Origin: Pseudomonadota bacterium
GTDB lineage: Bacteria; Pseudomonadota; Alphaproteobacteria; Reyranellales; Reyranellaceae
Direction of reading: 5' to 3'
DNA: 64,000 nt
Assembly (NCBI GenBank): GCA_020160995.1
Contig: JAIUOY010000078.1
Location: 2,151 to 66,150 of the forward strand
Shown: positions 4,424 through 64,000 of the stretch, piece by piece
Layout of the letters: each line of letters starts with the position of its first letter
Numbering within the stretch: position 1 is the stretch's first letter
Notes under the pieces: model-generated
Database searches by the model: none
Told to the model about the DNA's origin: nothing
The model's input: the letters and a program-made list of their open reading frames with translations, nothing else
Position numbers and translations under genes: made by a program

Positions 4424-4817
4424 CACCCTTAGAGACGCCCTTCTACGAAGCGCTCCTCAGGATGAGGAAATACAAGGGCCTGGCCCCTCACCCGTACACC
4501 ACGCACACCGCGTTGCAGTCGACGATCTCGGCCGGCGTGTCGGCGGTGAGCGTGCCGGCGTCGCGGGCGGCGGGCACGAGGGCGAGCAGGCGTTGCTTCA
4601 GCGTTTCGAGGCCCGCGTCGTTGGGCCCGGCCTCGTGCGGTTCGACGGCGAGGTCGACGGCGAGACGGATCTTCTTCTGGCTCATGTGATTCCCCTTCCA
4701 CAGTTCGCCTCACCCTGAGGAGCGCTTCGCAGAAGCGCGTCTCGAAGGGTCGGCAACAGCATGACTGGCTCCCACCCTTCGAGACGCCGCGCGTTGCGCG
4801 GCTCCTCAGGGTGAGGG
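4424..4817. repeat. Palindromic repeat family A (CCTCAYCCTGAGGAG...GTCTCGAAGGRTG), three copies
   Basis: Copies at 4424-4467, 4708-4750 and 4773-4817; the last two are an inverted pair. Confidence 0.85.
4488..4685 (-). CDS. Small hypothetical phage protein
   Basis: 65-aa ORF between repeat copies, co-oriented with phage genes. Confidence 0.5.
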   Translation of the reverse strand: MSQKKIRLAVDLAVEPHEAGPNDAGLETLKQRLLALVPAARDAGTLTADTPAEIVDCNAVCVVYG

Positions 4818-5007
4818 CTAAACAAGCAGGTCGCCGGGCAGACCCTCCTTGGTCGTTCAGCCCTCCTTGGCTGGCCCGGCTTCCCGTTGCAGCGACCTTC
4901 CCCGGTCACCGAAACCTTCGACGAAACCTTGCGGCGATCATCCGACGCACAGCCGGTGAAACGCGAATCCTGCGCGCCGAACAATTTTGCAGATCAGCTC
5001 TCCTCGC

Positions 5008-5718
5008 CTAGCTCTCCTCAACCGTCAGCATCAGGTCGGGGAAGTTCTGCTCGAACACGGCGAGCGTCGCCTCCCAGCCGATCGCCGCCATGTGCGCCTT
5101 GAACTGCGCGTCGGAAATCGCCGGCGGAAGCGTCGGGAGGTTCGTCGCCGCCGTCGAGGCCGGCGCCGCGACGCGGTTCGCTGCCGCGCCGCCTTCACTT
5201 GCAGCACCGCTGCCCATCGCGACGCCCTTCGCTTCCTGCACCAGCGCGTGCAGCTTCAGCACCGTCATGCCCTCGGCGGCGGCGGTGGCCAGCCAGTCGC
5301 GCGCATTGTCGCGGTCGACGACGCCGACCAGCTCCTTCAGCTTCGACCAGCCGACCGGCCGCAGCTCCTGCCAGGTGAGGCCGAGATCGATCACGCTCTC
5401 GTAGATCGCGGCGAGATAGAGCGCCTTGCGCAGCTTGAAGCCGTGCCGCGCCTCGACGTAGCTGCGGAAGTCGGGATAGCCGGCGCCGCGATACCAGCGC
5501 TCGCGATGGATGCGCGCCAGCAGGCCGCCGAGACGAAAGGCATCGAAGTCGCTCGCCTCGGCGATCTCCGCCGCCAGCCGGTGCGCCTGCGCTTCGGAAA
5601 CATTCTCGATCTCGTGCGCGGTGCAGGTCAGCGGATCGGGCGCCAGCACGTCGCCTTTCAAGGCGCGCGCGAGCGGGACATGAGTCCCGGAGAGGGGAGT
5701 CTTGGTCGCAAGGTGCAT
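5008..5718 (-). CDS. Hypothetical phage protein (DUF3102-like helical motif)
   Basis: LGGLLARIHRERWY...YPDFRSYVEARHGFKLRKALYL...GWSKLKEL resembles phage DUF3102-type proteins. Confidence 0.6.
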   Translation of the reverse strand: MHLATKTPLSGTHVPLARALKGDVLAPDPLTCTAHEIENVSEAQAHRLAAEIAEASDFDAFRLGGLLARIHRERWYRGAGYPDFRSYVEARHGFKLRKALYLAAIYESVIDLGLTWQELRPVGWSKLKELVGVVDRDNARDWLATAAAEGMTVLKLHALVQEAKGVAMGSGAASEGGAAANRVAAPASTAATNLPTLPPAISDAQFKAHMAAIGWEATLAVFEQNFPDLMLTVEES

Positions 5719-5728
5719 CGTGTCGCCT

Positions 5729-5998
5729 CTAGCGGAGGAAGGCTTGCGTCGGTGCGGCGAAGGCCGCGGGATAGCGCGTGACGCCGCGCGTCGCCTTGAA
5801 GCGGCGGATGGCGTCGCGTTCCTCCTCGGGCGTGAGCCGCGGCTGGCGTGCCAGCTTTGCCATCAGCAGGCGGTTGGCGATCAGTTCGGCGGAACGACGC
5901 TTGTATTCCGCGCCGTTGCGGCCCGCCGCGCCTTCGCTTTCGCGTGCGACGGGCAGGGAAGACGGCGCAACTCCGCGCCGCACGATGACGACAGGCAT
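5729..5998 (-). CDS. Hypothetical phage protein
   Basis: ATG 8 nt downstream of a CCAAGGAGGG ribosome-binding site. Confidence 0.55.
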   Translation of the reverse strand: MPVVIVRRGVAPSSLPVARESEGAAGRNGAEYKRRSAELIANRLLMAKLARQPRLTPEEERDAIRRFKATRGVTRYPAAFAAPTQAFLR

Positions 5999-6030
5999 TC
6001 CAGCGACCCTCCTTGGTCTTTGCCAGAGTT

Positions 6031-6402
6031 TTACTTCTGCAACGTTTCTCCCGAAGCGCAAGGAATCCCGCTTAAGGAGGATTCCGGTTGCGGCGTGCAA
6101 TCGAGAGGCGTGCAAGCGATTGCAAGCCCCACCACCTGCAACGCGGCGCGCAGGTTGCCGATGTTGGGCGTGCGCTGGCCGCGCGCCCACGCGCCGATCG
6201 TGTCCTTGCCCAGCCCGGCATCGAGCGACACCTGTTCGCGCGCCAGCCCCCTCTTCTCGATCTCGCCGACAAGGCGATGCACCAGCGGATCGAGCGCGGT
6301 GCTGTGCGGCGTGGTTGTGGGGGCAGCGTCATGACCCCTCCGCCCTGTATGACAGGGCACCTCCCCCGCCGACGGGGGAGGAAGTTTGAGCGCGACGCTC
6401 AC
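6031..6402 (-). CDS. XRE-family helix-turn-helix protein with in-frame palindromic repeat near the N-terminus
   Basis: IEKRGLAREQVSLDAGLGKDTIGAWARGQRTPNIGNLRAAL is an HTH_3 pattern; GTG overlaps the ssb stop (GTGA). Confidence 0.7.
   Translation of the reverse strand: MSVALKLPPPSAGEVPCHTGRRGHDAAPTTTPHSTALDPLVHRLVGEIEKRGLAREQVSLDAGLGKDTIGAWARGQRTPNIGNLRAALQVVGLAIACTPLDCTPQPESSLSGIPCASGETLQK
6331..6381. repeat. Palindromic repeat family C (ACCCCTCCGCCCTGTATGACAGGGCACCTCCCC...GGGGAGG)
   Basis: Same core as copies at 9837, 10929, 25409 and 61381. Confidence 0.85.
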
Positions 6403-7214
6403 AGGCGCTCCGCGAGTCTTGCGACGTCGTAGCTGCGCGGCGCGAAGGCCGGCGCGGCGACAGGGGCGGCGGCGGGCGCGCGGCCGAGGCCCAGCGCGAT
6501 CAGGCGCGAGGCCGGCAGGTAGGGAAACTCCTGCTCGTAGTCGGCCGGCACGCCCTCGGCGCCGTAGCGTTCGGCCAGCGCGTCGAGCGGCGTGCGGTCG
6601 AGGAACTCGAACTCGGTGCCGACGCCGGGCGACAGGCCGTCGCCGCTGTCGAGCCGCGTCACCGCCAGGGTTGCGCCGGCCAGGCCCTCGCTGCCGAGCG
6701 TCGACGCCTTGAGCTGCAACTTCGCCAGCGTGCCCTTCTTGGCGACGAACAGCTTGCGCTGGTCGACCACGACGGTGCCCGCGCGGGGGCCGCGGCGGAT
6801 CGTGTAGGGCCGGTGGTCGATCACCGTGAAGGCCGCCACCAGCGCCGGCGGCCGGCCGCTGTCGCAGATCGGGCACGGCTCGCTGCCGCCGCCACTCCCC
6901 ATACCGTTGACGCACACGAAGGTCGCCCAGCGCCCGGCGAGCTGCACCGCATGTTCGTAGAGGCTGGGCACCGCCAGCAATCCATCCTCGTCGAGCGCGC
7001 CGTCGAGGAAGGTGATGCGCGCCGGCTCGTTCACGTCGATGCGAAAGCGATGCAGGCGGCGCTGCGCCTCGCGCCGCACCTCCTGCTCCGCGGCATCGCG
7101 CGCATAGGCGTCGTGGGCGGCCTTGCCGCGCAGCATCCAGCTCGGCGTGGAGGCAGAGCCGGGCGCGGGCGTTGCAGGCATCGGGGAAACGAAATCGGAA
7201 GCGACGTTGGACAT
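6399..7214 (-). CDS. Phage single-stranded DNA-binding protein (gp32-like, CPIC motif)
   Basis: ARITFLDG...LYEHAVQ...FVC...EPCPICD...AFTVIDHR...RKLFVAKK; AAGGAGG site before ATG 7214; replication-module context. Confidence 0.6.
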   Translation of the reverse strand: MSNVASDFVSPMPATPAPGSASTPSWMLRGKAAHDAYARDAAEQEVRREAQRRLHRFRIDVNEPARITFLDGALDEDGLLAVPSLYEHAVQLAGRWATFVCVNGMGSGGGSEPCPICDSGRPPALVAAFTVIDHRPYTIRRGPRAGTVVVDQRKLFVAKKGTLAKLQLKASTLGSEGLAGATLAVTRLDSGDGLSPGVGTEFEFLDRTPLDALAERYGAEGVPADYEQEFPYLPASRLIALGLGRAPAAAPVAAPAFAPRSYDVARLAERL

Positions 7215-7459
7215 CGAACGGTCCTCCTTGACCGATGGATACGGATGAACAGCGAACGCTTCCGACGTGTAGCCGCTCTCCGCAATCCTGCAAGCTTTGT
7301 GTCGCATGAGTTCATGCGTGCAATCGACTGGAGCTTGCATTTTTTGGACGATCAAACCACCAGCCGTATTTGACTACCCCGATCATAAACCGGCCTTGGC
7401 AACCATGCGTTGCTGTCCTTCCAACTTCCACATACCCTGTAGCTATGGGAGGTGGAGAA

Positions 7460-7966
7460 ATGGTGGACATCGTTACGGACGGCCAGATTCAAGGACTGCG
7501 GGAGCTTCCAAAAAAATTGGTCAACCCGAGAGCGCGGCAAAAGCATACAGAGCGGTTCATCACGCACGATTTCAAAGTGGAAAGCCTCGACGGCACCCAG
7601 AAATTCAGCATCTACAAACGCCAGAATCTGGCGGACTCCACGGACTTCTCAGTCGGAATTCGATGGGAAGGGCGAAGTGCCGAAATCACATTGGCACGTT
7701 ACAATGGCTCCAGCCATGAACATACCAATCACATTGAGGGCGATAAACTCTCCCATGTCTGCCATGTGCATCACGCGACCGAACGATATCAGATGGCGGA
7801 TCGCAAGCCGGAAGGGTACGCTACGGCCACTTCTGATTATATGAGCCTTGACGGAGCGTTTCGGTGTTTACTCGCCGATTGGAATATTCAGCAACCCAAC
7901 GCACCGGAGCCTTCCGGGCAGTCGGGCGATTGCCTGTTCGACGACGCTCCCAATGATGGAACGTGA
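7460..7966 (+). CDS. His-rich putative nuclease/toxin (DUF6978-like)
   Basis: LARYNGSSHEHTNHIE...CHVHHATERY motif; lower GC; ATGA-coupled to the next gene. Confidence 0.55.
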   Translation: MVDIVTDGQIQGLRELPKKLVNPRARQKHTERFITHDFKVESLDGTQKFSIYKRQNLADSTDFSVGIRWEGRSAEITLARYNGSSHEHTNHIEGDKLSHVCHVHHATERYQMADRKPEGYATATSDYMSLDGAFRCLLADWNIQQPNAPEPSGQSGDCLFDDAPNDGT

Positions 7967-8742
7967 TGGCTGATCTTTATACTGACATGGAGAAGTCGCT
8001 CTGCGAGGCGCTATGCGCGGAGGTGCGCATTGTCGCCCGTCCAAACAACGTGTTCGCTGTTTCAACCCCGTTGACCTTTCCGGATGGCGATAGCCTTCCG
8101 ATTTTCCTTCGCCGCCTCCCAGAAGGAGGCGTTGAGTTTACCGACATGGGCAATTCGCTCATGAGGTTAAGCTACGAGACCGATGCGCCGGCTCTCCGCG
8201 AAGGAACACGTGGCCGCATTCTATCTCAGTTGCTGGCCGAATTCGGCCTGGAGGACAGGAGGGGGGAGCTAGTGCTAGCTGTTCCTGGCCATCAGACTGG
8301 GCTAGGTGTCTTTAAGTTCAGCCAAGCACTCACTCGCGTTCATGACTTATCATTTCTTAATCGAGTGAATGTTGAGAGCACGTTCTACGAGGATCTTCGA
8401 AAGGACCTTGAGGAGATTGTTGGCGATCGTCGAATGATCTTGAACTACACGGTTCCGGCAATCGGGCCAGACTATCCAATCGACTACTTCATCCCCGGGT
8501 CGCGTCTGCCGCTTTATGTATTTGGGGTTCCGAATCAGGATAAAGCGAGACTAGCGACAATCGTACTTCAGCATTTATTGAGTAACGGTCAAATTTTCGA
8601 TTCCGCCGTAGTCTTCCGCGACGCTGACCTACTGCCTCGGAGAGATTTCAACCGATTGGCCAACGTTGCAAACGATATTGTAACATCCGCCGATGCAACC
8701 GAAGACTTGACGAGAAAAATTAAGCATAGGCTTGCCGCTTAG
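7963..8742 (+). CDS. DUF1828/DUF1829-like protein
   Basis: VSTPLTFPDGDSLPIFL...FTDMGNSLMRL N-terminal pattern; C-terminal PIDYFIP region is restriction-endonuclease-like. Confidence 0.65.
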   Translation: MMADLYTDMEKSLCEALCAEVRIVARPNNVFAVSTPLTFPDGDSLPIFLRRLPEGGVEFTDMGNSLMRLSYETDAPALREGTRGRILSQLLAEFGLEDRRGELVLAVPGHQTGLGVFKFSQALTRVHDLSFLNRVNVESTFYEDLRKDLEEIVGDRRMILNYTVPAIGPDYPIDYFIPGSRLPLYVFGVPNQDKARLATIVLQHLLSNGQIFDSAVVFRDADLLPRRDFNRLANVANDIVTSADATEDLTRKIKHRLAA

Positions 8743-9107
8743 GGGCGCGAGCATTGTAGGCGTGGAAACGGCAACAGCGTCGTTCGGAGCAATCGACATC
8801 GAGTGGTCCTCCTTGATCGGTGAATCGTGAATGCCGTCAGGAGTAGCCGCAATCCTGCAAGCTTTGTGTCGGTGCCTCGATGTTTGACGGGCGCCGCGCG
8901 CTGTTTCATACAACCCGCATGATCGAGAAGGACACCCACATCGTTGCCCGGCCGGCCGGTATCCCCTTGGCGGGATGCCGGGAAGCGGATCGGACGAACT
9001 AGCAACGAACTAGCCACGCCGATTGTCTGTCTCGGCCTCGCCCCTCAGGGACGAGGCTTTTCGGCGTGGAAAAGTGCCTCGTCCTCCCTTTGTCTCTGGA
9101 GACGAAC

Positions 9108-9839
9108 ATGGCACAGAACATCTACGACAATCCCGACTTCTTCGCCGGCTACAGCCGCCTGCCCCGCCAGGTCGACGGCCTCGACGGCGCGCCGGAATGG
9201 CCGGCCATCCGCCGCCTGCTGCCCGATCCGGCGGCCAAGCGCGTGGCCGATCTCGGCTGCGGCTTCGGCTGGGCGTCGCGCTGGTTTCGCGAGCACGGCG
9301 CGGCGTCGGTCCTGGGCGTCGACCTCTCGCGCAACATGATCGCGCGCGCGAAGGCGGACACGAACGATTCCGCCATCGACTACCGGATCGCCGATCTCGA
9401 CACGCTCGACCTGCCGGCGGCGGCGTTCGATCTGGTCTACAGCGCCCTCACCTTCCACTACGTGCAGGACTTCGCGCGGCTGGTCCGCACCATCCACGCC
9501 GCGCTGGCGCCGGGCGGCGATCTGGTGTTCACCATCGAGCATCCGATCTACATGGCCGCCGTTCATCCGCGCTGGACCTCGGACGAAGACGGCCGCAAGA
9601 CCTGGCCGGTAAACGGCTACGCCCGCGAAGGCGAACGCCGCACCGACTGGTTCGCCCCGGGCGTGCTGAAGCACCACCGCACCGTGGCGACCACGATCAA
9701 CACGCTGATCGATACGGGCTTCGCCTTGCGGCGGATGGAAGAGTTCGCCCCCACGCCCGGCCAGATCGCAGAGAACCCGAAGCTGGCCGAAGAACTCGAA
9801 CGGCCGATGATGCTGCTGGTCTCGGCGCGCAAGACCTGA
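9108..9839 (+). CDS. Class I SAM-dependent methyltransferase
   Basis: VADLGCGFG motif I; LGVDLSRNM; MAQNIYDNPDFF N-terminus. Confidence 0.9.
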   Translation: MAQNIYDNPDFFAGYSRLPRQVDGLDGAPEWPAIRRLLPDPAAKRVADLGCGFGWASRWFREHGAASVLGVDLSRNMIARAKADTNDSAIDYRIADLDTLDLPAAAFDLVYSALTFHYVQDFARLVRTIHAALAPGGDLVFTIEHPIYMAAVHPRWTSDEDGRKTWPVNGYAREGERRTDWFAPGVLKHHRTVATTINTLIDTGFALRRMEEFAPTPGQIAENPKLAEELERPMMLLVSARKT

Positions 9840-9944
9840 CCCCTCCGCCCTGTATGACAGGGCACCTCCCCATTCAAATGGGGAGGTGTCGTCGTCTTAC
9901 GACGACGGAGGGGTCATGCGGTCGGGTCGAGCGCGTCGGGTCGA

Positions 9945-10685
9945 TCAGCCGCCCAGGCCGAGCGCGCGCTTGGCGCTGTCGAACCAGCCTTCGACCGTGC
10001 CCCACCAGCCGCTCTCGGCGTAAACGATGTCGGCGCGGATTTCCTGCTTGAAGTCCGGCGGTGGCTGGAACAGCGCGGCGACCGGCATCTTCCAGGTCAC
10101 GCGGCGTCCGTCCTGGTCCACCACGCCGGTCGTGTTCTCGATCCGGGCCGCCGTTATCGTCACCGTGACGTAGCGGTTGGCCATGGCGGTCTTGAACATC
10201 GCGACGAAGGGATTGTCGCCGGCCGGCTGGGGCTTCTTCGAGTTCGCTTCGATCAGCGCGGCCAGCCGATAGGATGAGTCGCCCAGCCGCTCGAACGTGA
10301 AGGTCTTCAGCTCGAACGGCCCGTCGGGCGGTGTCGCGTCCGGCTTCCATGTCTTGGCGGCCTTCACCGGATCGTCGAGTTCGAGGGAAACGGTGCAGGT
10401 GAGCATGTCGCCGCGGGTGCCGCGCACGCCTTTCACCCAGCGTATGCCGTCGGGCAACGCGCCTCCCGCCGCCGCAGGCCCCTTCTCGCACTCCTTCAGC
10501 GGATCGGCGCCATCCTTGTCTTTCGCCAATCCGGCCATCAGGGCCGCGCCCTGCGCCGAGAATGCGAACTCGACATCGAGCTTGCCCGTGCCGTCCTTGC
10601 GAAAATCGGAATTCGCCGCCATCTCGAAACACCCGCCCAGCGACACGGCGGCAACGACGACCATCAAAGTTTTTATGCAACGCAT
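9945..10685 (-). CDS. LppM/DUF3153-like lipoprotein
   Basis: Lipobox SLGGC; DFRKDGTGKLDVEF and final NTTGVVDQDGRRVTW motifs. Confidence 0.65.
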   Translation of the reverse strand: MRCIKTLMVVVAAVSLGGCFEMAANSDFRKDGTGKLDVEFAFSAQGAALMAGLAKDKDGADPLKECEKGPAAAGGALPDGIRWVKGVRGTRGDMLTCTVSLELDDPVKAAKTWKPDATPPDGPFELKTFTFERLGDSSYRLAALIEANSKKPQPAGDNPFVAMFKTAMANRYVTVTITAARIENTTGVVDQDGRRVTWKMPVAALFQPPPDFKQEIRADIVYAESGWWGTVEGWFDSAKRALGLGG

Positions 10686-10724
10686 GCCGGAACTCCCTCG
10701 CTGGCGACTCTCGTTCGGGATTTA

Positions 10725-10847
10725 CTACCCTGCACCGTCGGCCAGCGCACGCTTCTCGGCATAGAAGTCGATGAAGGCGCGCATCTTGGTCGACAGATGC
10801 GCGCGCGACGGCAGGTAGAGATGAAAGCCCGGGATCGGCGGACACCA
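10725..10847 (-). pseudogene. LysR-type regulator C-terminal remnant
   Basis: WCPPIPGFHLYLPSRAHLSTKMRAFIDF is a typical LysR C-terminus; no N-terminus; abuts the duplicated segment. Confidence 0.75.
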
Positions 10848-10928
10848 CGCCCGACCAGATCGCAGAGAACCCCAACCTCGCCGAAGAACGCGAACGGCCG
10901 ACGAGGCTGCGGGTCTCCGCACGCAAGG

Positions 10929-11047
10929 CATGACCCCTCCGCCCTGTATGACAGGGCACCTCCCCATGTGAATGGGGAGGAGGATGATTCTTCGCCTCCC
11001 CATTCAGATGGGGAGGTGGCGCCGTCTGCGGCGACGGTGGGGTCATG
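10929..11047. repeat. Palindromic repeat family C, composite copy
   Basis: Two CCTCCCCAT...ATGGGGAGG hairpins inside TGACCCC...GGGGTCA ends. Confidence 0.85.
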
Positions 11048-11061
11048 CCGGCGCCCCGTGC

Positions 11062-11943
11062 TCACTCACGCAGCTCCGCCGCCGCGACGGCGAAGATCTC
11101 GTCGGCCGCGCCGACCGCCACGAAATGGCCGGCGCCCTGGACCGGATGCCACACCGCGCCCGGCATGCGGTCGGCCACGTCGCGGTTGATCGAGGCCGCG
11201 ACCAGCCGGTCGTCGGTGCCCTGCCAGAAATGGACGCGGCGTTCGATCTTCGTCACGTCGAAGGGCCAGCGGCGGTAGAGCAGCTCGCTGTCGCGCGCCA
11301 GGCCGTGGCTGCCCTGCGCGAAGCATTCGGCGGACATCAGCTGGAACGCCGTCACGACATTGGGCCGGTCGAGGATCTCGCGGTCGTCGTCGTTCACCGC
11401 CTTGCGGACCTGCGCGGTGAAGAGCTTGCGGAAGCGCGTCGCGCTGAGGCCGAGGGCGGCGTACATCAGGCCGAAGGCCGGCCGGAAGCCCAGCGCCAGC
11501 GCGCCGCCGAACGCATCGGCCCTGGAGAGACGGTCGGCCGCCCAGTTGTCGCCGAACGCGCCGTAGCTGCCGCCGGCAATGCTGGCGACATGGCGCAGCC
11601 GCGCGGGATCGATATAGGCCGCCGCCGCCAGCGCCCACGGCCCGCCTTCCGACCAGCCGGTCACGCCGAACATGCGATGGCCCAGCGCATCGGCGATCGT
11701 CGTCAGGTCGTCGGCCCAGCCGGCGAAGCTGCGCGGCTCCTGCGGGGTCGAGCGGCCGATGCCCGGCCGGTCGGCGCAGACCAGCCGCAGCCGGTGCTTC
11801 GTGGCGGCGTCCACGAACAGCAGCGCTTCGAGCCGGCTGCTCGGTCCGCCGTGATTGTGGATGACGAGCGGGCCCGCGGCATCGCCGACCTCCAGGCAGG
11901 CCAGCGTGCGCCCGTCGCGGGTCGCGATGTCGCGCTGCGCCAC
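11062..11943 (-). CDS. Alpha/beta hydrolase
   Basis: HGGPSS oxyanion motif, GWSEGG nucleophile elbow, WQGTDD and GAGHF catalytic Asp/His. Confidence 0.9.
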   Translation of the reverse strand: MAQRDIATRDGRTLACLEVGDAAGPLVIHNHGGPSSRLEALLFVDAATKHRLRLVCADRPGIGRSTPQEPRSFAGWADDLTTIADALGHRMFGVTGWSEGGPWALAAAAYIDPARLRHVASIAGGSYGAFGDNWAADRLSRADAFGGALALGFRPAFGLMYAALGLSATRFRKLFTAQVRKAVNDDDREILDRPNVVTAFQLMSAECFAQGSHGLARDSELLYRRWPFDVTKIERRVHFWQGTDDRLVAASINRDVADRMPGAVWHPVQGAGHFVAVGAADEIFAVAAAELRE

Positions 11944-11977
11944 CGCCCCCGCCCTCCGCACCCCGGCCCGCGCCCGC

Positions 11978-12361: not shown

Positions 12362-12398
12362 GGCGTCCTCGCGACCGGCTTTCCCGGGATCGACGTAC

Positions 12399-19203: not shown

Positions 19204-19218
19204 CAGACAGGCGCGACG

Positions 19219-55220: not shown

Positions 55221-55262
55221 CTCTCTCCCATCTCGTCGAATTCGCACGAGTCCATGAGATCG

Positions 55263-55805: not shown

Positions 55806-55992
55806 TTCACTCCCCACCCAAACGGCGGCGATCCCAGGTTGGCACCGTTCGCTCGGGCAAGGGTGATCGAGCTGCAGCGCAGCACGAAGCCCGCATTCCG
55901 CGCTTGGCGTTCGGAGGGCAACCCGCTTACCGTGCGCGGCCGACTTGAGTCGCGGCAGCCGCCGTTCACGGTATCGGCACGGAGGAGACAGC

Positions 55993-57066: not shown

Positions 57067-57524
57067 CGGAGATCCTTGATCGAGAAGGTGTCGCCTCCCA
57101 TCGGCGACTGCCGGCGGCAGACGTCCGCGACCGCGTCGACCGAGTTCCGCAGAAAGTCGGAGGCGATCGGTGTCACTTCCGAGGCCGCCATGGGCGCGGC
57201 GCGGCCGTCCTTTCCGATCACGTACAGGTCGAGAACCACCCTCACATAGTCGCCATGCTGAGACAGGGCGTAGATCGAACGATTGCCGTGCTTGTCGGCG
57301 ACGATCTGCCCGGGCGCCTGCGTCTCGGTCAGCCGGAATTTGTTGCGAAGCAGATTGAGCGTTATCCCGCGCTGCATGCAGTCGACGTTCGCGCCGTAGC
57401 CCACGGCCTCCAGGCTGGCCCCGAGAGTACCGGGGGCAGCCACCTCGGCAGGGAGGTAGGCGCAGGCCCCCGCCGCAAGAGCCGCGCCCAGCATCGCGGC
57501 ACTCGAACGCATCGCTCGCTTCAT
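57063..57524 (-). CDS. Lipoprotein, paralog B
   Basis: Lipobox AGAC; aligns along its length with 54768-55220. Confidence 0.75.
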   Translation of the reverse strand: MKRAMRSSAAMLGAALAAGACAYLPAEVAAPGTLGASLEAVGYGANVDCMQRGITLNLLRNKFRLTETQAPGQIVADKHGNRSIYALSQHGDYVRVVLDLYVIGKDGRAAPMAASEVTPIASDFLRNSVDAVADVCRRQSPMGGDTFSIKDLR

Positions 57525-57632
57525 CTCTCCTCCGGTCACGCGCGACGGGATGAAGCAACAAAACAGACGATGGAGCAACCGGCCGGAGGGAGACGTGCGA
57601 CCGAAGCCGCGCGTCTCCCTCCGTACCCGTCC

Positions 57633-58904
57633 TCAGCAGGCGTAGAATATGATCTCGTCGTCGCCGTTCAGGCGATTGAACTGCAATGCGGCGTCGAGGG
57701 CCTGCAGGCCGTTGCGGTCCTTGTAGGTGAGGCCGGTGTACTGGACGCAGGGCGCGTGGATGTACCAGCTGTTGCCCGGCGTCGTGCCGACCCGCATGCC
57801 GAAGGGCATCAGGCGGGCGTTGGCGAGCTTGGTCCAGAAGTCCTGGCTGGCGACCAGCGTGGCTTCCGGGTCGATGCCGCCGGAGCTGCCGCGGTCGGTG
57901 ATGCGCAGGCCGGTGTAGCCGTTGGCCGCGTTGATCGAGGTGCGCGGGTCGATCTTGTTGGCGATGTCGAAGCTGAACGTGTCGACCACGCACGGGTTGT
58001 TGAGCGGGCCCGCGACGCCGAAGCCGTCGACATGCAGGCGGCCGAGTTCGACCTGCTGCGGCAGGGTCGACTCGAACACCGGCGCGGCCGGAAAGGCCGC
58101 ATCCGTCGGCGTGCTGTAGATGCCGGTGAACTCGAACTCCACCGTGGCGCGCCCGCCGGCCTGCGCATTCACCTTGAAGGTGCCGTAGCAGCCAGTCGCC
58201 TCGTGCAGCACGCCGTCCTTGTAGAGGCGCAGCGAGACGCTCTCCTGCTGGTTCTCGACCGAGGTCGGCTGATACTTGATGCCGGCCGGAAAGACCGTGA
58301 CGATCCACTTCTGCCCCGCGATCAGCGATCCGCTCCAGGTCGGCGTGACCGTGGCGCCCGCGAGACCGCCGGTCGTCAGCGTGGCCGCCGTGCCGGAGAT
58401 CATGTCGACGCCCACTTGCGCGGCCGTGCCATCGTCGGCCGTGATCGTCATCTCCGCCGTGCCCGAGAGGCCGCCGGTCGTGACGTCGATCAGCAGCGTC
58501 TTCGGCTCGGTGATGCCGGAGAAGCTACCGCCGGTCGCCCAGGTGACGGTCGGGCCGCCAGCGACGTTGCCGATTGGCAGGAACGCGCCCTACCAGGCCG
58601 ACGCCTTGTTCTCGGCGACCAGCGAGCAGGCGCGCAGCAGGCGGCCCAGCCGGCTTTCCGAGCCGACCGTGCCGCTGCCGCGCAGCTCGTGCGTGAAAGA
58701 GATCTTGGAGATCTTGCGGCCGATCATGTCGGGCGTCGGCGAGAGATCGGCGCGATAGAGCGGCCGGTCGATGTTCTGGAGATCGATCTTGTAGTCGGCG
58801 TTCTCGACCAGAATCGGGCTGGTCGAATCGCTGAACGCGGGCAGCGTGCCGTAGGCCGGCTCGATGCCGGCATAGAGCATGGTCTTGCGGGTGAGAATGG
58901 ACAT
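57633..58904 (-). pseudogene. Major tail tube protein interrupted by one in-frame TAG (58590-58592)
   Basis: The ORFs ending at 58590 and at 57633 share one frame with a single TAG between them; LLRAC, YQPTS, DGVLHEATGCYG, YxDRNG tail-tube motifs. Confidence 0.85.
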
Positions 58905-58934
58905 GGAAGCCCCTCCTTGGGCCAAAGGGATTGA

Positions 58935-59693
58935 TTAGACGGCGACGGTAGCGGCAACGCCGCCGGTGGCATCGCCCAGCGCGTTGAGCTTGGTGGCGAG
59001 TTCCTTCACGGCGTTGGCGATCTTCTGCATCGCCGCGCCGGCATCGGCTGCCTTGACGATGGCGTTGGCCGCCGTCGCATCGGCGCCCGAGGCCGCCGTG
59101 CCGGTGCCTTCGGGAATGTCGGCGAAGACGAGGCTGTAGGCCGGCGTGCCGCCCGACAGGTCGACGATCTCCGCCGCCCCGCAGGCGACGGCGAGCTTGT
59201 TCGTGTGCAGGACGAGCTGGGCCACGGCGTTCTTGAGCCGCGTCAGCACGACGTTCGCGCCGGCGGCCGAGGCCATCGCGGTGCCGACGCCGGTGTAGGA
59301 GACATCGATGGCGGCGATGGTGCCGTCCGCGGACGTGCCGACGATGTTGTCGACCAGTGCGCCGCCCAGCGCCGGCACGCGCGCATTGAGGAGATTGACC
59401 TGGGCGATCAGCTCCTTCAGCGCGTCGGTGGCATTGGCGAAGCCCGCTTCCAGCTCGGCCTTCTGGGCGGCGTCGCTGCTGCCGAGCGCGGCCGGCACGA
59501 AGCTGCCGATGGCCTCGATCGTGCCGTTGGCGGTCTGGCCGCCCGAGTTGTCGGTGAGATCGGTTACAGTCGACGCGGCGATGCGGGCCAGCGACTGGGC
59601 CAGGCCGCGCATCGCGGGCGTGAGCCCGTTGCCGTCGGCGCGAAAGATCTGGCTGCCCGCCGCATACTGCGTTCGGGAAATCCTGACGGTCAT
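58935..59693 (-). CDS. Virion structural protein (head fibre/decoration-like)
   Basis: Three internal D(N/L)xxG...I repeats separated by helices; lies between tail terminator and tail tube. Confidence 0.55.
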   Translation of the reverse strand: MTVRISRTQYAAGSQIFRADGNGLTPAMRGLAQSLARIAASTVTDLTDNSGGQTANGTIEAIGSFVPAALGSSDAAQKAELEAGFANATDALKELIAQVNLLNARVPALGGALVDNIVGTSADGTIAAIDVSYTGVGTAMASAAGANVVLTRLKNAVAQLVLHTNKLAVACGAAEIVDLSGGTPAYSLVFADIPEGTGTAASGADATAANAIVKAADAGAAMQKIANAVKELATKLNALGDATGGVAATVAV

Positions 59694-59822
59694 TGGAGCA
59701 CCTCGTTGTGCGGGATGCGGGTGCATCCCTCCATGCCCGCCCCGGACTGGCACCGCCCCCGCCCGCCCGGTATCGCTCCCGGCCGCCGTGGTTCGGCGCT
59801 GCGCCAACGAAGATTGCTACCT

Positions 59823-59852
59823 ATGCGTGTTTTACTTTACAAATACACGCAT
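59823..59852. promoter_or_regulatory. Inverted repeat ATGCGTGT-N14-ACACGCAT in a divergent promoter
   Basis: Perfect 8-bp arms around an AT-rich spacer. Confidence 0.55.
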
Positions 59853-59895
59853 ATAGAGTGGCGTCGCTGAAACATCCTGGATTGGAGAAGCTGCG

Positions 59896-60195
59896 ATGTC
59901 GGGGCTCTTTCGGAAACTGATGCTCGTCGCGGGCATCGGCATGATCGGAATGGCATTCCCAGGCGGCGCCAATGCCGCCCCGATGGGTTCCTACCAGCCG
60001 TCGCTGGCGGACCACGGCGGCTCCTTCACTCTCGCAGGCAATGGATCGCGCTATGGCGATACAAGGGACGGCTACACCACGGTGATCGTGACGAACCGCG
60101 GCCAGAACGGCTACCCCGACCACGTCGTCAAGCAGCGTGTCCGCTGCTGGAGCCAGTACTACGACGGCTACCGCCAACGCATCGCGAAGTGCTGA
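59896..60195 (+). CDS. Small exported protein (moron)
   Basis: Signal peptide ending GANA; GGAGAAG site upstream. Confidence 0.6.
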   Translation: MSGLFRKLMLVAGIGMIGMAFPGGANAAPMGSYQPSLADHGGSFTLAGNGSRYGDTRDGYTTVIVTNRGQNGYPDHVVKQRVRCWSQYYDGYRQRIAKC

Positions 60196-60309
60196 TCGCA
60201 GCCCTGTGCGCGCAACCAACGAACGGCGCAACTCAACCTAAAAGAGTTTTACACAGACGAAATGCGCCTATACGGTCAGGCCGTTTCAGTCGAAGTGAAA
60301 AGGAAGACA

Positions 60310-60894
60310 ATGCGCCTGTTGCTGCTGCTTGCCGTCGCCGTTGCGATCTCGGCCTGTTCACCACCTCCGCCGAGTCCGTCCCGCGCTTCGGGCTCGCCCA
60401 CCAGCACGGCCCGATCTTCCGATACGTACGATCCGCATTCTCCCCATATCGAGAGCGACCCCTATTCGACAACCATCGACGTCAAAACCAAATCTGCAAC
60501 CCGCAAAGGCACCGAAGTCACCGAGGTCTACGGCCTCTACTCGAAGACGCTCCGCAAGGGCAATGCCACGCGCGTCTATGTCCAGTGGTCGGCCATCTAT
60601 AGCGACCGGACATGGCATATCTACAACCGGGCCTCGAACGACAAGGGTCAGTCGTACGACTTCCAGGAAGTGGAGCGCGACGTTGGTAGCTGCCGCTCCC
60701 AGCGTTGTGTTTATCGAGAGACCTACAACATCATTATTCCCTTGGCCGACCTCAAGCGCGGCGCGACCGACGGCATCCGGTTCAAGATCTATGCGCGCAG
60801 CGGCGACAGCGCCGTCGTCGAGCTTCCCGCCTCGCTGATCGTCCAGTTCAACGAAAAGTTCGCCGAGGCCCAGAAGATGCGCGCCGGGTCCTGA
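60310..60894 (+). CDS. Lipoprotein (moron)
   Basis: MRLLLLLAVAVAISAC lipobox; Pro/Ser linker; C-x4-C. Confidence 0.75.
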   Translation: MRLLLLLAVAVAISACSPPPPSPSRASGSPTSTARSSDTYDPHSPHIESDPYSTTIDVKTKSATRKGTEVTEVYGLYSKTLRKGNATRVYVQWSAIYSDRTWHIYNRASNDKGQSYDFQEVERDVGSCRSQRCVYRETYNIIIPLADLKRGATDGIRFKIYARSGDSAVVELPASLIVQFNEKFAEAQKMRAGS

Positions 60895-60964
60895 CGGACC
60901 GGGCTTTGCTTCAGTCGTTTGGGACCGTACAAAGCGCGTCGGTCACTATCGAGAGAACTGAAGA

Positions 60965-61369
60965 ATGCCCTCCGTCATTGCCGCGATCCTGGAATCGTCG
61001 GCGTTCCTCGTGCTCGCACGGGTGCTGCTCACCTTCGTCTTCTGGTCGTCCGGGCTCGCCAAGCTGTTCGGCTTCAACGCCGCCATCGCCGAGATGGAGA
61101 TGTTCGGCCTTCATCCCGGCTGGCTGTTCGCCGTCGCGACCATCATCGTGCAGCTCGGCGGCTCGCTGGCGGTGATCCTGAACCGCGGCGTCTGGCTCGG
61201 CACCGGCGCGCTCGCCATCTTCACCTTGCTGACCATCCCCATCGTCCACGACTTCTGGAACAAGACCGGCATGGACGCCTTTCACCACATGGTGGTCTCG
61301 TTCGAGCATGTGTCGATGGTCGGCGGCCTGGCGCTGGCGGCGATCCTGTCGAAGAAGACGGCGCGCTGA
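60965..61369 (+). CDS. DoxX family membrane protein
   Basis: LARVLLTFVFWSSGLAKL...QLGGSLAV...HDFW...EHVSMVGGL. Confidence 0.9.
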   Translation: MPSVIAAILESSAFLVLARVLLTFVFWSSGLAKLFGFNAAIAEMEMFGLHPGWLFAVATIIVQLGGSLAVILNRGVWLGTGALAIFTLLTIPIVHDFWNKTGMDAFHHMVVSFEHVSMVGGLALAAILSKKTAR

Positions 61370-61380
61370 CTCTCTCTCGC

Positions 61381-61492
61381 TCTGACCCCTCCGCCCCTGC
61401 GGGGCACCTCCCCATCTGAATGGGGAGGAGGATGACTTCGCCTCCCCCGTCAACGGGGGAGGTGGCGGCGTCTTCGCCGTCGGAGGGGTCAA
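61381..61492. repeat. Palindromic repeat family C, composite copy
   Basis: TGACCCCTCCG...CGGAGGGGTCA ends with two internal hairpins. Confidence 0.85.
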
Positions 61493-61511
61493 GTCCCTTC
61501 CGCCTCCGGCG

Positions 61512-61982
61512 TCACACGATCCGGCGCGGGTCCTTGATCGAGTGGCGGTACTTCATCGTGTAGAGGAGCACGCCGGCGACATGGCGCTGGTTCTCGTCCT
61601 CGACGTCGGAGTCGTTGCTGGTCTCCACCAGGTCGATCACCAACCCGCCCAGGGTCGGGTCCTCGGCGAGGCGGCGCTGGACCGCGCCGAAATAGGCATT
61701 CATCTCGCTGCTGGGCTGCGCACCCGATTGCACGACCAGCTTGATCTCGAGCGCCACCGTCAGGCTGCACTCGCGCACCATGTGGAGGTCGCGCTTCGTC
61801 TCGCGGCCATCGAAGATGCCGAGCGAGCGTTGCTTGCGATAAGCCCAGTCGCGCAGCGGCGCGCGCACCACGAGATCCCAGGCGAAACCATAGTCGCCCG
61901 CGGGCTGCGTCCTGATGATCTGTTCGAGGGCAGCCAGCGCGCGTTCGCGCACCGTCAGTTGGTTGGGAACGAACTCAGCCAC
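61512..61982 (-). CDS. Tail terminator-like protein
   Basis: RRLAEDPTLGGLVIDLVE...YRH pattern; neck-gene position. Confidence 0.7.
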   Translation of the reverse strand: MAEFVPNQLTVRERALAALEQIIRTQPAGDYGFAWDLVVRAPLRDWAYRKQRSLGIFDGRETKRDLHMVRECSLTVALEIKLVVQSGAQPSSEMNAYFGAVQRRLAEDPTLGGLVIDLVETSNDSDVEDENQRHVAGVLLYTMKYRHSIKDPRRIV

Positions 61983-61994
61983 CGTTCATCTCCT

Positions 61995-62366
61995 TCAGCC
62001 CATCTCCTTGAGGATCGCCTTGAGCGCGCGTTCCAGGAAGTAGTCGCGCTCGCCGTCGAGCGCGCGCAGCACCTCGATCCGCGTCCGGCCGCGCTTCGTC
62101 TGCGCCTGCATCAGGTACGGCGTGCGCCTGAGGCCCTGCCGTCGCGCCGTCAGGAGCACGCGGCCCCTGATGTCGCCCAGGCTGCTGCCCGCAATCTCGA
62201 CGCTGGCCCCCGAGCCGGCGGTCGCGCCTTTCAGGTAGGTTTCGAGTTCGCGCCGCAGCGCCCCCGGCACGCGCTGCCAATCGTCGGCGAACGCCTTGGC
62301 GACCGCCTCGAAGCCCGCCGCGGCGTCGGTGTAGCGTCGGCCGCGGAACGAGACTTCGATGCCCAT
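61995..62366 (-). CDS. Tail completion/neck protein (possibly internally shortened)
   Basis: Position in the head-tail joining cluster. Confidence 0.55.
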   Translation of the reverse strand: MGIEVSFRGRRYTDAAAGFEAVAKAFADDWQRVPGALRRELETYLKGATAGSGASVEIAGSSLGDIRGRVLLTARRQGLRRTPYLMQAQTKRGRTRIEVLRALDGERDYFLERALKAILKEMG

Positions 62367-62379
62367 TGCGCGACGCCCG

Positions 62380-63012
62380 TCAGACGACGACGCCGGCGCG
62401 CGGCGTCTCGGCCCAGGGCAGGTAGCGCGCGTGACGCTCCAGGATGCGCACGAGCTGGCCTTGCAGCAGCCGCGCGTCGGCCGTCGACTGGTTCTGCACG
62501 AACATGGGATGCGCGCTCAACGCCACGCGGGCATGCAGCCGCGCCGCCAGCGCCAGCCAATCCGGCACGGCGTCGAAATGCTGGCCGTCGGTCGCCGTGA
62601 AGCCCGCGGTGTAGGACACGCGGAACCACCACGGACGGAAGCCGCCGAGCGCCTCGCCGGCGCCTCCCCCGGGCGCGATCGACACGACGCCCTTCTCGGG
62701 GTCGACGGTCGCCGTGGCGGTGAGGTCGATCTCGTTCGTGCCGAACTCGGCCGGCAGACGTGCGGCCGTCACCGTCGGCGTCCCAACGAGGAAGCCGCGC
62801 AAAAGGCCCAGCCGCACGAGATGGCCGGCCGGATACTGGCCGATCTCCACGGCAAAATCGTCGCGCGCCGTCGTCCGCTCCAGGGTGGTGCGGAGACGGC
62901 TCGCGATATCGTCCGTCGCGGCATCGAGCGCGGCCAGGATGGCGTTGTCGCCGTCCTGACCGGCCTCGACACCCAGCGCTTCCCGGACGGAAAGCAGGCT
63001 GGCGAGCTTCAT
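62380..63012 (-). CDS. Head-tail connector/adaptor
   Basis: KLASLLSVREALG...DNAILAALDAAT; RVSYTAGF...VPDWL. Confidence 0.75.
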   Translation of the reverse strand: MKLASLLSVREALGVEAGQDGDNAILAALDAATDDIASRLRTTLERTTARDDFAVEIGQYPAGHLVRLGLLRGFLVGTPTVTAARLPAEFGTNEIDLTATATVDPEKGVVSIAPGGGAGEALGGFRPWWFRVSYTAGFTATDGQHFDAVPDWLALAARLHARVALSAHPMFVQNQSTADARLLQGQLVRILERHARYLPWAETPRAGVVV

Positions 63013-63043
63013 GATGTCCTCGCTTGTGGTCGGACGCCGAGAG

Positions 63044-64000
63044 CTAGACCGTGCCGATGTTCGTGTACTTCACGATGGCGTCGGTCTCCTCGACCTGCAC
63101 GGCCACGCGGGCGGTCAGCACGACGATGTAGACGCGCTCGCTGATGTTCTTGTCGAACTCCAGGCTGATCTGGCGCTGGATGCCGAAGATCAGGTTGAGC
63201 GGGTTGGTGAACAGGCCCAGCGCCTCGGGCATGAGCTGCACCGCCTTCATCGGCACGCCGTAGGGCGAGAGCAGCCCGCTGGTCTGGACCTGCAGGTCGC
63301 CCAGCACGCCGACGCGATTGGCCAGCGTGTCGCGATACTCGGTCTCCTGGTTCACCGACACGAAGTGGCGCATCGCCGCCTTGTTGCGGAGATACTGGAC
63401 CGGCATGTCGGTCATGCCCTTCTTGAACATCTCCTTGGCGATGGCGGCATTGGCCCAGTTCACGACATGGCCGGCGCCCGCGAGCTTCAGCCAGCCGTCG
63501 AACATCGAGAGATAGGCCTGGTCGTCGGCGTCGCCCGGATTGGTGTAGGCGGTGTCGCCTAGCAGGCACAGTTCTTCGAGGTCGAGCGCCGCACGCTCGG
63601 CGATCAAGGTCACCAGCGTCTCCTGCAGGCCGCTCGACCACGGGCTGTTCGACGGCTCGTTGCCGGCCGCGACCGCGCGCTCGATATTGTCCTCCAGCAC
63701 GTCGTAGGGCAGCCGGATCTCGGCCATCACCTCCTGGGTGGAGAGCATGATGTGCTCGGTGCCGGGCTTGGCGCGCTGCGCCTGGGTCAGCGCCACGCCG
63801 GACTGCGCCTTGCGCAGGATGCGGTTGGCAAAGCCGATCTTGTTGATCTTGCGCTGCGGCGCCGCCATCTCGACGACCCTCGCCTCCTTGATGAGCGTCG
63901 GCTCCTTGATGAGCTTGCGGATGAAGGCCGCGCCCTGTTCGGGCATCAGCAGGCCGCCATTGGCCGAGAGGTCGGCGAGCGCGAGGTCGGCTTTCTGCAG
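63044..64000 (-). CDS. Major capsid protein, HK97 fold (5' partial)
   Basis: Open to the window end: GGLLMPEQGAAFI...KINKIGFANRIL...LPYDVLEDNIE...FTNPLNLIFG. Confidence 0.92.
   Translation of the reverse strand: MQKADLALADLSANGGLLMPEQGAAFIRKLIKEPTLIKEARVVEMAAPQRKINKIGFANRILRKAQSGVALTQAQRAKPGTEHIMLSTQEVMAEIRLPYDVLEDNIERAVAAGNEPSNSPWSSGLQETLVTLIAERAALDLEELCLLGDTAYTNPGDADDQAYLSMFDGWLKLAGAGHVVNWANAAIAKEMFKKGMTDMPVQYLRNKAAMRHFVSVNQETEYRDTLANRVGVLGDLQVQTSGLLSPYGVPMKAVQLMPEALGLFTNPLNLIFGIQRQISLEFDKNISERVYIVVLTARVAVQVEETDAIVKYTNIGTV

Follow-up and report, generated by a model that had tools for sequence, protein, structure and literature searches.

The DNA analysed here is a stretch of 64,000 nucleotides (the window) from contig JAIUOY010000078.1 of assembly GCA_020160995.1, which belongs to the Reyranellaceae. 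It carries a phage-derived element that is interrupted by blocks of non-phage genes, referred to here as cargo. The GC content of the window is about 66%, and GC-frame gene calling together with Pfam and PHROG scans gave about 75 open reading frames (ORFs). Virion and replication genes occupy the minus strand from position 4488 to the end of the window. An earlier model-made annotation, below called the sequence-only reading, had described such a minus-strand virion and replisome set as part of a prophage on its way to becoming a cargo platform, and our comparisons bear this gene set out. The closest genomes are metagenome-assembled genomes (MAGs) of Reyranella: Reyranella sp. GW715_bin.31, represented by a 367-kb contig with a major capsid protein (MCP) 98% identical in amino acids, and a MAG labelled R. 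massiliensis. The host is therefore assigned to Reyranella (Alphaproteobacteria).

The same sequence is present in activated-sludge and wastewater metagenomes. Logan contigs of four runs (X1-X4) from two studies (2017 and 2022) tile the window at 100% identity, a few single-nucleotide polymorphisms (SNPs) excepted, and cross the junctions between phage and cargo genes, for example over 6337-9866, 11445-17650, 20015-25440, 34712 to about 44095, 45327-56305 and 56279-61415. The window differs from these near-identical populations at four positions. Three of the changes are synonymous (38501, 63275 and 61842, the last seen in X2 only), and the fourth, at 58591, is non-synonymous and turns a tryptophan codon of the tail tube gene into a stop (W105*). 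Many of the relatives are MAGs, and contig ends of the metagenome assemblies coincide with palindromic repeats, but since independent assemblies from both studies run across the phage/cargo junctions, the sequence is no chimera and a fusion of phage and host contigs can be practically dismissed.

An RcZahn-like backbone

The closest isolated phage is Rhodobacter phage RcZahn (MW677529, 101.6 kb), whose MCP is 66% identical to that of the element (E 2e-130). Identities of 51-59% were observed to the MCPs of the Rhizobium phages RHph_TM16/Y1_11 and of the Stenotrophomonas phages DLP3/DLP5. Related IMG/VR contigs are 89-100 kb long, and genomes of the group measure 80-100 kb. Thirteen proteins of the window match RcZahn, and their order is identical in the two, so that the synteny comparison with the closest free phage, which the sequence-only reading had proposed as a check, gave a collinear result. 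The series runs from MCP, head-tail adaptor, tail terminator, gp24, tube and chaperone to gp52, DnaB, primase, single-stranded DNA-binding protein (SSB) and gp66. The order DnaB, primase, SSB and later gp66 is also found in the related locus L015 (loci used for comparison carry L numbers), as in RcZahn. In relatives and in L002, a protease, a portal protein and a family-A DNA polymerase (PolA) follow just to the right of MCP. In a megablast search with 26-50 kb, none of 50,697 phage records matched, and the element thus has no close isolated phage. Homologous MCP and tube proteins and the collinear gene order place the element with RcZahn and Delepquintavirus. The completeness that marks the group, 80-100 kb with terminase, lysis and recombination genes, was not found, and the right end of the element lies beyond the window.

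The head and proximal tail genes begin with MCP (phrog_1623), which extends from 63044 to beyond 64000 and is cut by the window end. The head-tail adaptor (62380-63012), a 123-aa protein (61995-62366) and the tail terminator (61512-61982) come next, and a conserved 252-aa protein of the virion-gene cluster (58935-59693) is the homologue of RcZahn gp24. The tail tube (57633-58904) is 42% identical to RcZahn gp25. Its identity derives from Pfam family PF18906; neither the tube protein nor a profile of seven sequences matched any sequence in PDB. The annotation of DLP3, searched for a tube homologue, describes a different tail region. G/T-like chaperones (53612-54396) and the tape measure protein (TMP, 50498-53557) lead to a lambda-like distal tail with gpM (50154-50501, Phage_min_tail), a low-GC fibre of 910 aa (47363-50095), a DUF7936 protein (46941-47273), gpL (46143-46907, Phage_tail_L), gpK (45361-46143, JAB and NlpC/P60 domains), gpI (44478-45236, Lambda_tail_I) and gpJ, which starts with GTG at 39805, ends at 36038 and carries GpJ FNIII-A and Phage-tail_3 domains. 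A second fibre (35176-35883) and a Gp38-like glycine-rich protein (34278-35171) complete the tail module.

The replication side comprises a dNMP kinase (31783-32388, phrog_139), a helix-turn-helix (HTH) protein with weak similarity to RcZahn gp51 (about 30900-31800), the homologue of RcZahn gp52 (28149-28733), a DnaB-like helicase (26738-28006), a 125-aa gene without assigned function (25486-25863) that adjoins the primase, the DNA primase itself (ORF listed as 24395-25489, phrog_47) and a gp32-like SSB (6399-7220, phrog_17226) that is 40% identical to RcZahn gp57. The homologue of RcZahn gp66 (5008-5718, phrog_17202) and a 73-aa ORF (4488-4709), which is flanked by palindromic hairpins of the family C described below, lie closest to the left boundary, placed at 4423-4829. 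To the left of it are host genes, namely a GmrSD-like gene (2584-4242), DUF2390 (1883-2515) and DUF465 (515-760). The GmrSD-like gene is a low-GC gene of the GmrSD_N/HNH type situated just outside the left end, at a place where the GW715_bin.31 MAG has a GST gene.

Orthologues of the backbone ORFs align end to end, and ribosome-binding sites of the type AAGGAGG or AGGAGG precede the starts of tube, gpJ, fibre and chaperone. The statement that most phage ORFs remain intact behind strong ribosome-binding sites thus held in our comparison. The nonsense codon in the tail tube, which had been taken as a sign of domestication, is indeed present in the window sequence but does not carry that meaning. 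The tube gene has 423 codons and starts with ATG at 58904 behind AAGGAGG; a TAG at 58590-58592 occupies codon 105, giving the reading ...ENKASAW-TAG-GAFLPIG.... In X1, X2 and X4, contigs of this strain have C at 58591 and therefore TGG, and this is the sole difference in a contig of 5137 bp. The codon is also TGG in L005, L006 and L018, and the tube ORF is uninterrupted in the more distant L010, L011 and L014 as well as in RcZahn (gp25, 411 aa). As the stop is private to one sequence, it has no bearing on long-term decay; it arose very recently in this one genome or is an error of its consensus sequence. Programmed readthrough or stop recoding of the tube gene was considered and rejected, given TGG in the same strain and in L005, L006 and L018 and the uninterrupted ORFs of distant relatives.

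Cargo blocks and host-type repeats

Relative to an RcZahn-like backbone, the phage genes are broken by seven blocks of non-phage genes. All seven intervals that the sequence-only reading had named as cargo hold genes outside this backbone. Its count of at least ten blocks was higher than ours; as at least four sub-insertions make up the composite block at 7.4-24.4 kb, the number of insertion events could nevertheless plausibly reach ten or more. Comparison with relatives identifies several of the blocks as insertions: L015 and RcZahn have primase next to SSB, so the 17-kb block between them is an insertion; gpI and gpJ are adjacent in L030-L032, which marks the block at 40.2-44.5 kb as inserted; and the HTH and gp52-like genes of L031 adjoin directly, without the sulfatase gene, which is thus also an insertion.

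The composite block between SSB and primase (7370-24431), annotated with Pfam and PADLOC, has genes on both strands. It starts with a low-GC, PDC-M24-like gene pair on the plus strand (7370-8742) and continues with a SAM methyltransferase (9003-9839, plus), a lipoprotein between repeat composites (9945-10685, minus), an alpha/beta hydrolase (11062-11961, minus), a group of peptidoglycan-binding proteins, small membrane proteins and an HExxH protein (11978-14908, minus), a leucine-rich repeat (LRR) protein (15954-16664, minus), an acyl-CoA dehydrogenase (17155-18459, minus), a TetR regulator (18610-19203, plus), an OprD porin (19204-20640, plus), a low-GC islet of Vsr, type II restriction endonuclease, Dcm and an IS1595 fragment (20731-23711, minus) and a GNAT protein (23760-24431, plus). 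A core of 9 kb, consisting of the GNAT, OprD, LRR, peptidoglycan-binding/HExxH, hydrolase and methyltransferase genes, is common to L027 and in part to L025. What the window has in addition to L027 are the low-GC restriction-modification and PDC-M24-like islets, the TetR and acyl-CoA dehydrogenase genes and one lipoprotein gene, that at 9945-10685. The restriction-modification islet is probably a recently acquired mobile unit. In L025, the orthologous block of the GW715_bin.31 MAG, positions 1-3083 encode a TIR-STAND-WD40 protein of more than 1459 aa, which is likely an immune sensor.

The remaining blocks are shorter. A small DUF6953 (phrog_10782) protein is encoded on the plus strand at 26279-26563, and this gene may belong to the phage rather than to the cargo. 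The sulfatase (28956-30710, plus), which has a Tat signal, is absent from the orthologous L031. The plus-strand genes at 32406-34281 encode a DinB-family protein, also present in L031, and a HATPase_c_2/DUF4325 protein, which L031 does not have. Between gpI and gpJ, and in the lineage of the window only, three minus-strand genes of no known function with a GC content at third codon positions (GC3) of about 0.76 are found (40217-42745), for which Pfam, PHROG and PADLOC gave no match; a GC-rich stretch of 1.1 kb with no convincing gene (42745-43859) and a plus-strand lipoprotein gene (43859-44470) follow. The cargo at 40217-44470 is absent from L030-L032, and L029 has the lipoprotein gene alone. 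The region between chaperones and tube (54768-57632) is a cargo hot spot with a lipoprotein (54768-55220, minus), a membrane protein (55263-55800, minus), a TctC/Bug receptor (55867-57066, plus) and a paralogous lipoprotein (57063-57530, minus). The two paralogous lipoprotein genes bracket the membrane-protein and TctC genes, and L018 has one copy beside TctC; the arrangement suggests a duplication linked to the insertion. The last block (59857-61369, plus) encodes a small secreted protein, a lipoprotein (60196-60894) and DoxX.

Among close relatives the junctions are fixed, whereas the cargo content is variable. The lipoprotein at 60196-60894 is missing in L005 and L018, while DoxX is common to these two and the window. 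Contigs of the RNA-seq runs X24-X27, over 44001-64000 of the window, are also without this lipoprotein (60198-60870), as is L005. L005 has neither TctC nor one of the lipoproteins but carries DoxX; L018 has TctC together with an MFS transporter, an MmyB-type regulator and two DoxX copies; and L031 has a different Dcm island after DnaB. In L040, from the Reyranellaceae MAG GCA_046349335.1, two genes with the VasI domain, which is associated with type VI secretion systems, are located at 12354-14886, at the tube/chaperone junction that holds TctC in the window.

A possible role of the element as a defence island had also been proposed. At 20.7-23.2 kb, PADLOC detected a type II restriction endonuclease (REase_II, 5e-112), which is accompanied by Dcm and Vsr, and the second gene of the PDC-M24-like pair (7963-8742, DUF1828) matched PDC-M24B, a candidate defence family, at 1e-13. 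The first gene of the pair had no match, and the islet is absent from L027. A weak GmrSD/NsnA-like match was obtained at 2584-4242. No PADLOC match was found among the other cargo tested, namely the HATPase/DUF4325 gene, the three genes at 40.2-42.7 kb, u15114 and u12399. A complete type II restriction-modification system with Vsr and a candidate PDC-M24-like pair thus lie within the element and a GmrSD-like gene beside it, but most of the cargo consists of ordinary envelope, transport or metabolic genes, and support for the proposal is partial.

Three families of palindromic repeats were observed, with 20 arms at 13 sites. All are intergenic, one site (30786-30894, family B) lying in the 3′ tail of a long ORF. 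Family A, with composites of CCTCCCC-N8-GGGGAGG, has 7 arms compared to 0.01 expected by chance; family B, TCCTGAGCGNAGCGAAGGA, has 6 arms compared to 0.00 expected; and family C, GCGTCTCGAAGGRTGG, has 7 arms compared to 0.12 expected. Sites include 61402-61493 (A), 28044-28132 between DnaB and the gp52 homologue (B), 45260-45358 between gpK and gpI (B), and 35892-35986 and 39855-39907 (C). Several sites are located at cargo boundaries. Among the 38 loci examined, the repeats occur in Reyranella or Reyranellaceae DNA only, including plainly chromosomal parts of L018, L022 and L025, and none were found in RcZahn or in large RcZahn-like viral contigs. L029-L032 have the family B site between gpK and gpI in common with the window. 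As short imperfect palindromes that are intergenic and also present in host-only DNA, the repeats have the properties of repetitive extragenic palindromic (REP) sequences and bacterial interspersed mosaic elements. The description of the repeats as host-type, made beforehand from the letters of the window, is confirmed by this distribution.

Two further observations concern these repeats. REP composites form a direct repeat of 136 nt (9751-9886 and 10845-10980, 89% identical, 1094 bp apart) that flanks the lipoprotein gene at 9945-10685, and a REP-mediated insertion or duplication of this gene is possible. In all four metagenomes, one contig joins 25432, the end of a REP A site, to 28037, the start of a REP B site, with 18 extra letters between them. 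Interpretation of this joint as a deletion variant was rejected, as only 22 nt are present on one side; it is probably an adjacency of two REPs at another genomic locus that shares the repeats.

Inheritance, selection and missing functions

The element occupies the same locus in a second Reyranella species. Its orientation and extent are the same in the GW715_bin.31 MAG, where SSB and MCP are 59 kb apart compared to 56 kb in the window. On the left flank, which was the flank compared, DUF2390, hyp1255 and DUF465 are common to the window (515-2515) and L025. The contig of this MAG, SCVC01000030.1, has the order SSB, gp66 homologue, small ORF, GST, DUF2390, FAA hydrolase, hyp1255 homologue and DUF465. 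Between the window and the GW715_bin.31 MAG, synonymous divergence (dS) is 0.35-0.40 for host flank genes, 0.14-0.61 for phage genes and 0.26-0.69 for cargo genes. GC3 of the backbone is 0.86-0.95 and thus host-like, with the exception of TMP and the 910-aa fibre (0.76-0.78). For comparison, RcZahn has a GC content of 60.7% and its host one of 66.5% (PMC8601537). The same locus and layout in a second species, the internal host REPs, some at shared sites, the host-like GC3 and the parity in dS support the long residence that the sequence-only reading had proposed.

Selection was assessed by pairwise dN/dS (Nei-Gojobori, NG86), and the backbone comparisons were made at dS values of 0.08-0.6. Backbone genes gave 0.04-0.33, compared to 0.04-0.30 for flank genes. 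The values were 0.04-0.09 for MCP, 0.04-0.07 for the tail terminator, 0.07 for DnaB, 0.08-0.20 for the tube and 0.20-0.25 for gpJ. The dN/dS check suggested for the structural genes therefore returned low values throughout, and the idea of selective retention, originally put forward for head and DNA-handling genes, agrees with head, tail and replication genes that fare no worse than the host flank.

Neither Pfam nor PHROG revealed a terminase, integrase, repressor, holin or catalytic endolysin domain among the roughly 75 ORFs of the window. There is also no tRNA in the window (ARAGORN) and therefore no tRNA attachment site within it. PHROG matches labelled 'endolysin' at 13568-14908 and 11978-12361 were considered as a lysis cassette and rejected, as they contain a peptidoglycan-binding domain only. 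These two genes belong to a quartet (11978-14908) that is conserved in L025 and L027 and encodes a peptidoglycan-binding and HExxH protein (446 aa), a membrane protein (73 aa), a protein with a membrane anchor at its C-terminus (237 aa) and a peptidoglycan-binding protein (127 aa). The quartet may represent a lysis cassette of divergent sequence or a set of secreted effectors. The helicase, RecA-like, resolvase, Cas4 and RuvC genes, which RcZahn and L015 have between SSB and gp66, are absent from the window. With tblastn, Pfam and PHROG, no match to RcZahn terminase, lytic transglycosylase, helicase 58, RecA-like protein, Cas4 or RuvC was obtained in the window, L005 or L018, and tblastn with the RcZahn terminase also drew a blank in the Reyranella loci. 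The element has no lytic transglycosylase, and of RcZahn genes 67-147 it lacks the majority.

The region to the right of the window was followed in relatives. PolA of five related lineages has about 640 aa instead of about 800, starts at residue 129 of the RcZahn protein and has a weak exonuclease domain; compared to related phages, about 150 aa are missing at the N-terminus. The gene is located at 982-2943 of L005 and 3018-4979 of L018 and is also present in L022-L024, and the ExoI motif reads 'RLD', compared to 'DLE' in RcZahn. By these sequence features, proofreading may have been lost. PolA stands directly after a LysR gene, a junction common to the five lineages, and LysR diverges in parallel with PolA. 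No terminase is present in the 10 kb upstream of PolA in L022, which contain genes of chromosomal type together with an IS110 transposase and a HigB-like gene. When IMG/VR and JGI metagenomes were scanned with the terminase of RcZahn and a four-sequence profile of it, 26 loci were obtained, none of which has Reyranella REPs or is linked to a Reyranella PolA or portal gene, a result that is not decisive. In L040, whose tube is 67% identical in amino acids, the run from gp24 and tube to gpK is kept, and at least 9 kb of host-type genes are found at the position expected for terminator and head genes. The absence of terminase, integrase, catalytic lysis gene and recombination module from what was searched, the short PolA of relatives and the host-level depth described below fit the view that this is not a viable phage. 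Judged by gene content, the ancestor appears to have lost packaging, lysis, integration and recombination functions, and the element would not form infectious virions on its own.

Read depth was evaluated in the metagenomes. In X1, contig depth is about 8-12x over host flank and element, and it is likewise even in X2-X4; neither excision joints nor circle joints were seen in the four runs. The coverage check that had been suggested hence shows the element at the depth of its host flank. In five RNA-seq runs (X23-X27), of which X24-X27 are small RNA-seq libraries of a coded 'organism A', contigs about 93% identical to the window cover tail, head and cargo genes at flat depth. Because of this flat depth and the presence of 34-kb contigs in the same assemblies, carry-over of DNA is possible, and the contigs stem either from transcripts of a related copy or from DNA contamination.

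Origin of the element and its place among known systems

We consider it probable that the element is a vertically inherited, defective (grounded) and selectively maintained prophage in the Reyranella chromosome, the remnant of a tailed phage of about 100 kb. Its origin would lie in the lineage of 80-100-kb siphoviruses that includes RcZahn, RHph_TM16/Y1_11 and Delepquintavirus. The prophage would have become fixed and passed on vertically, with packaging, lysis, integration and recombination functions lost. Junctions between phage transcription modules presumably tolerate insertions, and self-contained genes, many on the opposite strand, would therefore have accumulated there. Cargo may have come from horizontal acquisition, as suggested for the low-GC restriction-modification and PDC-M24-like islets, and from recombination with host DNA, possibly by way of REPs; hairpins of the Reyranella-specific REPs have colonised intergenic junctions. 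Head, tail and replisome genes may have been kept because they are still of some use to the cell. Our guess is that this use consists of occasional production of particles or tails or of an interaction with incoming related phages.

Several points weigh against a grounded, vertically inherited prophage. The right end of the element lies beyond the window, and the genes past LysR differ between lineages, so LysR could be part of another cargo block, with terminase and integrase farther off. TMP and the 910-aa fibre (47363-53557) are only 35-55% identical to their orthologues, whereas their neighbours are 91-96% identical; together with their lower GC3, this shows recent exchange with other phages, as expected of an active or recently active phage, and amounts to a replacement of the adsorption module by recombination within an element that is otherwise resident. 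Occupancy of the same locus could result from site-specific integration, and in pairwise dN/dS, repeated conversion of genes by active relatives looks the same as selection on a resident element. In addition, several of the comparison sequences are MAGs or metagenome contigs.

These points bear on an intact, inducible, temperate RcZahn-like phage with many morons, whose genes for terminase, integrase and lysis would be located beyond the window or over 10 kb upstream of PolA. Since the right end is outside the window and the genes past LysR vary in a cargo-block-like manner, this explanation was retained, although it is unlikely. Backbone ORFs that are all of full length with good ribosome-binding sites, a tube gene that is intact in the population and the phage-type recombination apparent in TMP and fibre would be expected of such a phage; genomes of the group have 80-100 kb, and accessory genes separate terminase and portal in RcZahn, too (PMC8601537). 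On the other hand, internal host REPs stand at sites common to several lineages, about 30 kb of chromosomal-type genes (porin, TetR, acyl-CoA dehydrogenase, TctC, sulfatase) are contained in only about 60 kb, and no recombination module is present between SSB and gp66. The short PolA abutting LysR in five lineages, the 10 kb without terminase in L022 and the host-type genes (at least 9 kb) that replace terminator and head genes in the more distant L040 are further difficulties, as are a read depth no different from the host flank and a synonymous divergence on a par with flank genes.

An improbable alternative is a domesticated particle producer, similar to a gene transfer agent (GTA), as the sequence-only reading had considered possible, or to the Bartonella GTA (BaGTA) with its run-off replication, in which the replisome amplifies the cargo neighbourhood, heads and tails deliver host DNA and the terminase is encoded elsewhere. 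Vertical inheritance with strong purifying selection on head, tail and replisome would suit such a system, fast evolution of fibre and TMP suggests an adsorption apparatus in use, the cargo is concentrated within the element, and the RNA-seq contigs cover tail, head and cargo genes. BaGTA and run-off replication provide a precedent by analogy (PMC2697382, PMC3610622, PMC5496983). However, no terminase or lysis genes were found, the depth of four metagenomes shows no regional amplification, and the RNA evidence may be DNA carry-over. Families of the RcGTA head and tail, for example the GTA TIM-barrel host-specificity protein, had no match in the Pfam and PHROG scans, and the distal tail is lambda-like, whereas RcZahn has the GTA TIM-barrel protein. 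Known GTAs have small heads. In contrast, the capsid of the element would be one for about 100 kb, judged by the capsid size of RcZahn (PMC8601537). A more specific version is an undescribed, siphovirus-derived element of the Reyranellaceae that builds heads and lambda-like tails and whose PolA, DnaB, primase and SSB over-replicate and export cargo, with a terminase elsewhere and an origin independent of BaGTA and run-off replication. By analogy with those systems it is conceivable, but we regard it as rather doubtful.

Plain neutral decay, with no retained function and with low dN/dS due to recent inactivation or to gene conversion by active relatives, is quite unlikely. The large deletions relative to RcZahn, the degenerate appearance of the PolA ExoI motif in relatives and the more eroded version in L040 would agree with decay, and a strain that acquires a nonsense mutation need not be lost at once. 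Yet about 35 backbone ORFs have kept their full length in several lineages although dS reaches 0.3-0.6, with ω no higher than in the flank, and the combination of full-length ORFs with low dN/dS at dS up to 0.6 makes pure neutral decay hard to uphold. MCP is 98-99% identical in amino acids at dS of about 0.14, and even the 67%-identical copy in L040 keeps intact tube, chaperone, TMP, gpM and gpL genes.

The grounded prophage was compared to known systems. It shares MCP homology, a single direction of genes and accessory genes between modules with RcZahn, RHph_TM16/Y1_11 and Delepquintavirus DLP3/DLP5, and as in RcZahn, PolA lies beside the portal gene in its relatives. It differs from RcZahn in being integrated, in its host-like GC3, host REPs and about 30 kb of chromosomal-type genes, and in a lambda-like tail tip (gpM-L-K-I-J) where the distal tail of RcZahn is of the GTA type. 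Relative to RcZahn, the element also has no terminase-to-gp14 region, no lytic transglycosylase and no recombination genes, and most of genes 67-147 are missing, with the right end beyond the window. Defective prophages under purifying selection were reportedly described by Bobay, Touchon and Rocha (PNAS 2014). Like these, the element is truncated, vertically inherited among related species and under purifying selection in its retained genes; unlike described cases, it has a Reyranella host, another phage lineage and a large parent genome as well as an unusually heavy load of host genes and REPs.

Phage morons, as known from lambdoid phages, are self-contained genes, often on the opposite strand, at recurrent junctions. 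The inserts resemble them in lying between phage genes at recurrent junctions and in varying among close relatives. Blocks of up to 17 kb, and a porin, TetR, acyl-CoA dehydrogenase, TctC and sulfatase of chromosomal appearance, are not typical of morons. F-type tailocins are lambda-like, flexible tails. A chromosomal lambda-like set of tube, TMP, gpM, L, K, I, J and fibre is reminiscent of them, and L040 keeps the tail module with no head gene within 9 kb upstream; the window, however, retains strongly constrained genes of the capsid, the portal side and the replisome, and neither a lysis cassette nor regulators were identified in it. The Bartonella BaGTA with its run-off replication module is a domesticated phage-derived region (PMC2697382, PMC3610622, PMC5496983). 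A replication module and capsid genes among host-adaptation genes are common to it and the element, the latter known from its genes alone, but the element shows no depth amplification and no terminase was found. The element is thus an instance of a known process, a defective prophage under selection with moron-type insertion taken unusually far, and not a new kind of element.

The locus also holds a methodological warning, since its most decay-like feature, the stop in the tube gene, is one private SNP that the natural population does not share. Beyond this, it provides a clear case of a large phage genome becoming ordinary chromosome. Module junctions have served as landing pads for host repeats and for defence, transport, envelope and metabolic genes, while capsid, tail and replisome have stayed constrained over species-level divergence. 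The element is therefore a candidate locus for particle production or gene transfer in Reyranella, a common genus of wastewater and soil.

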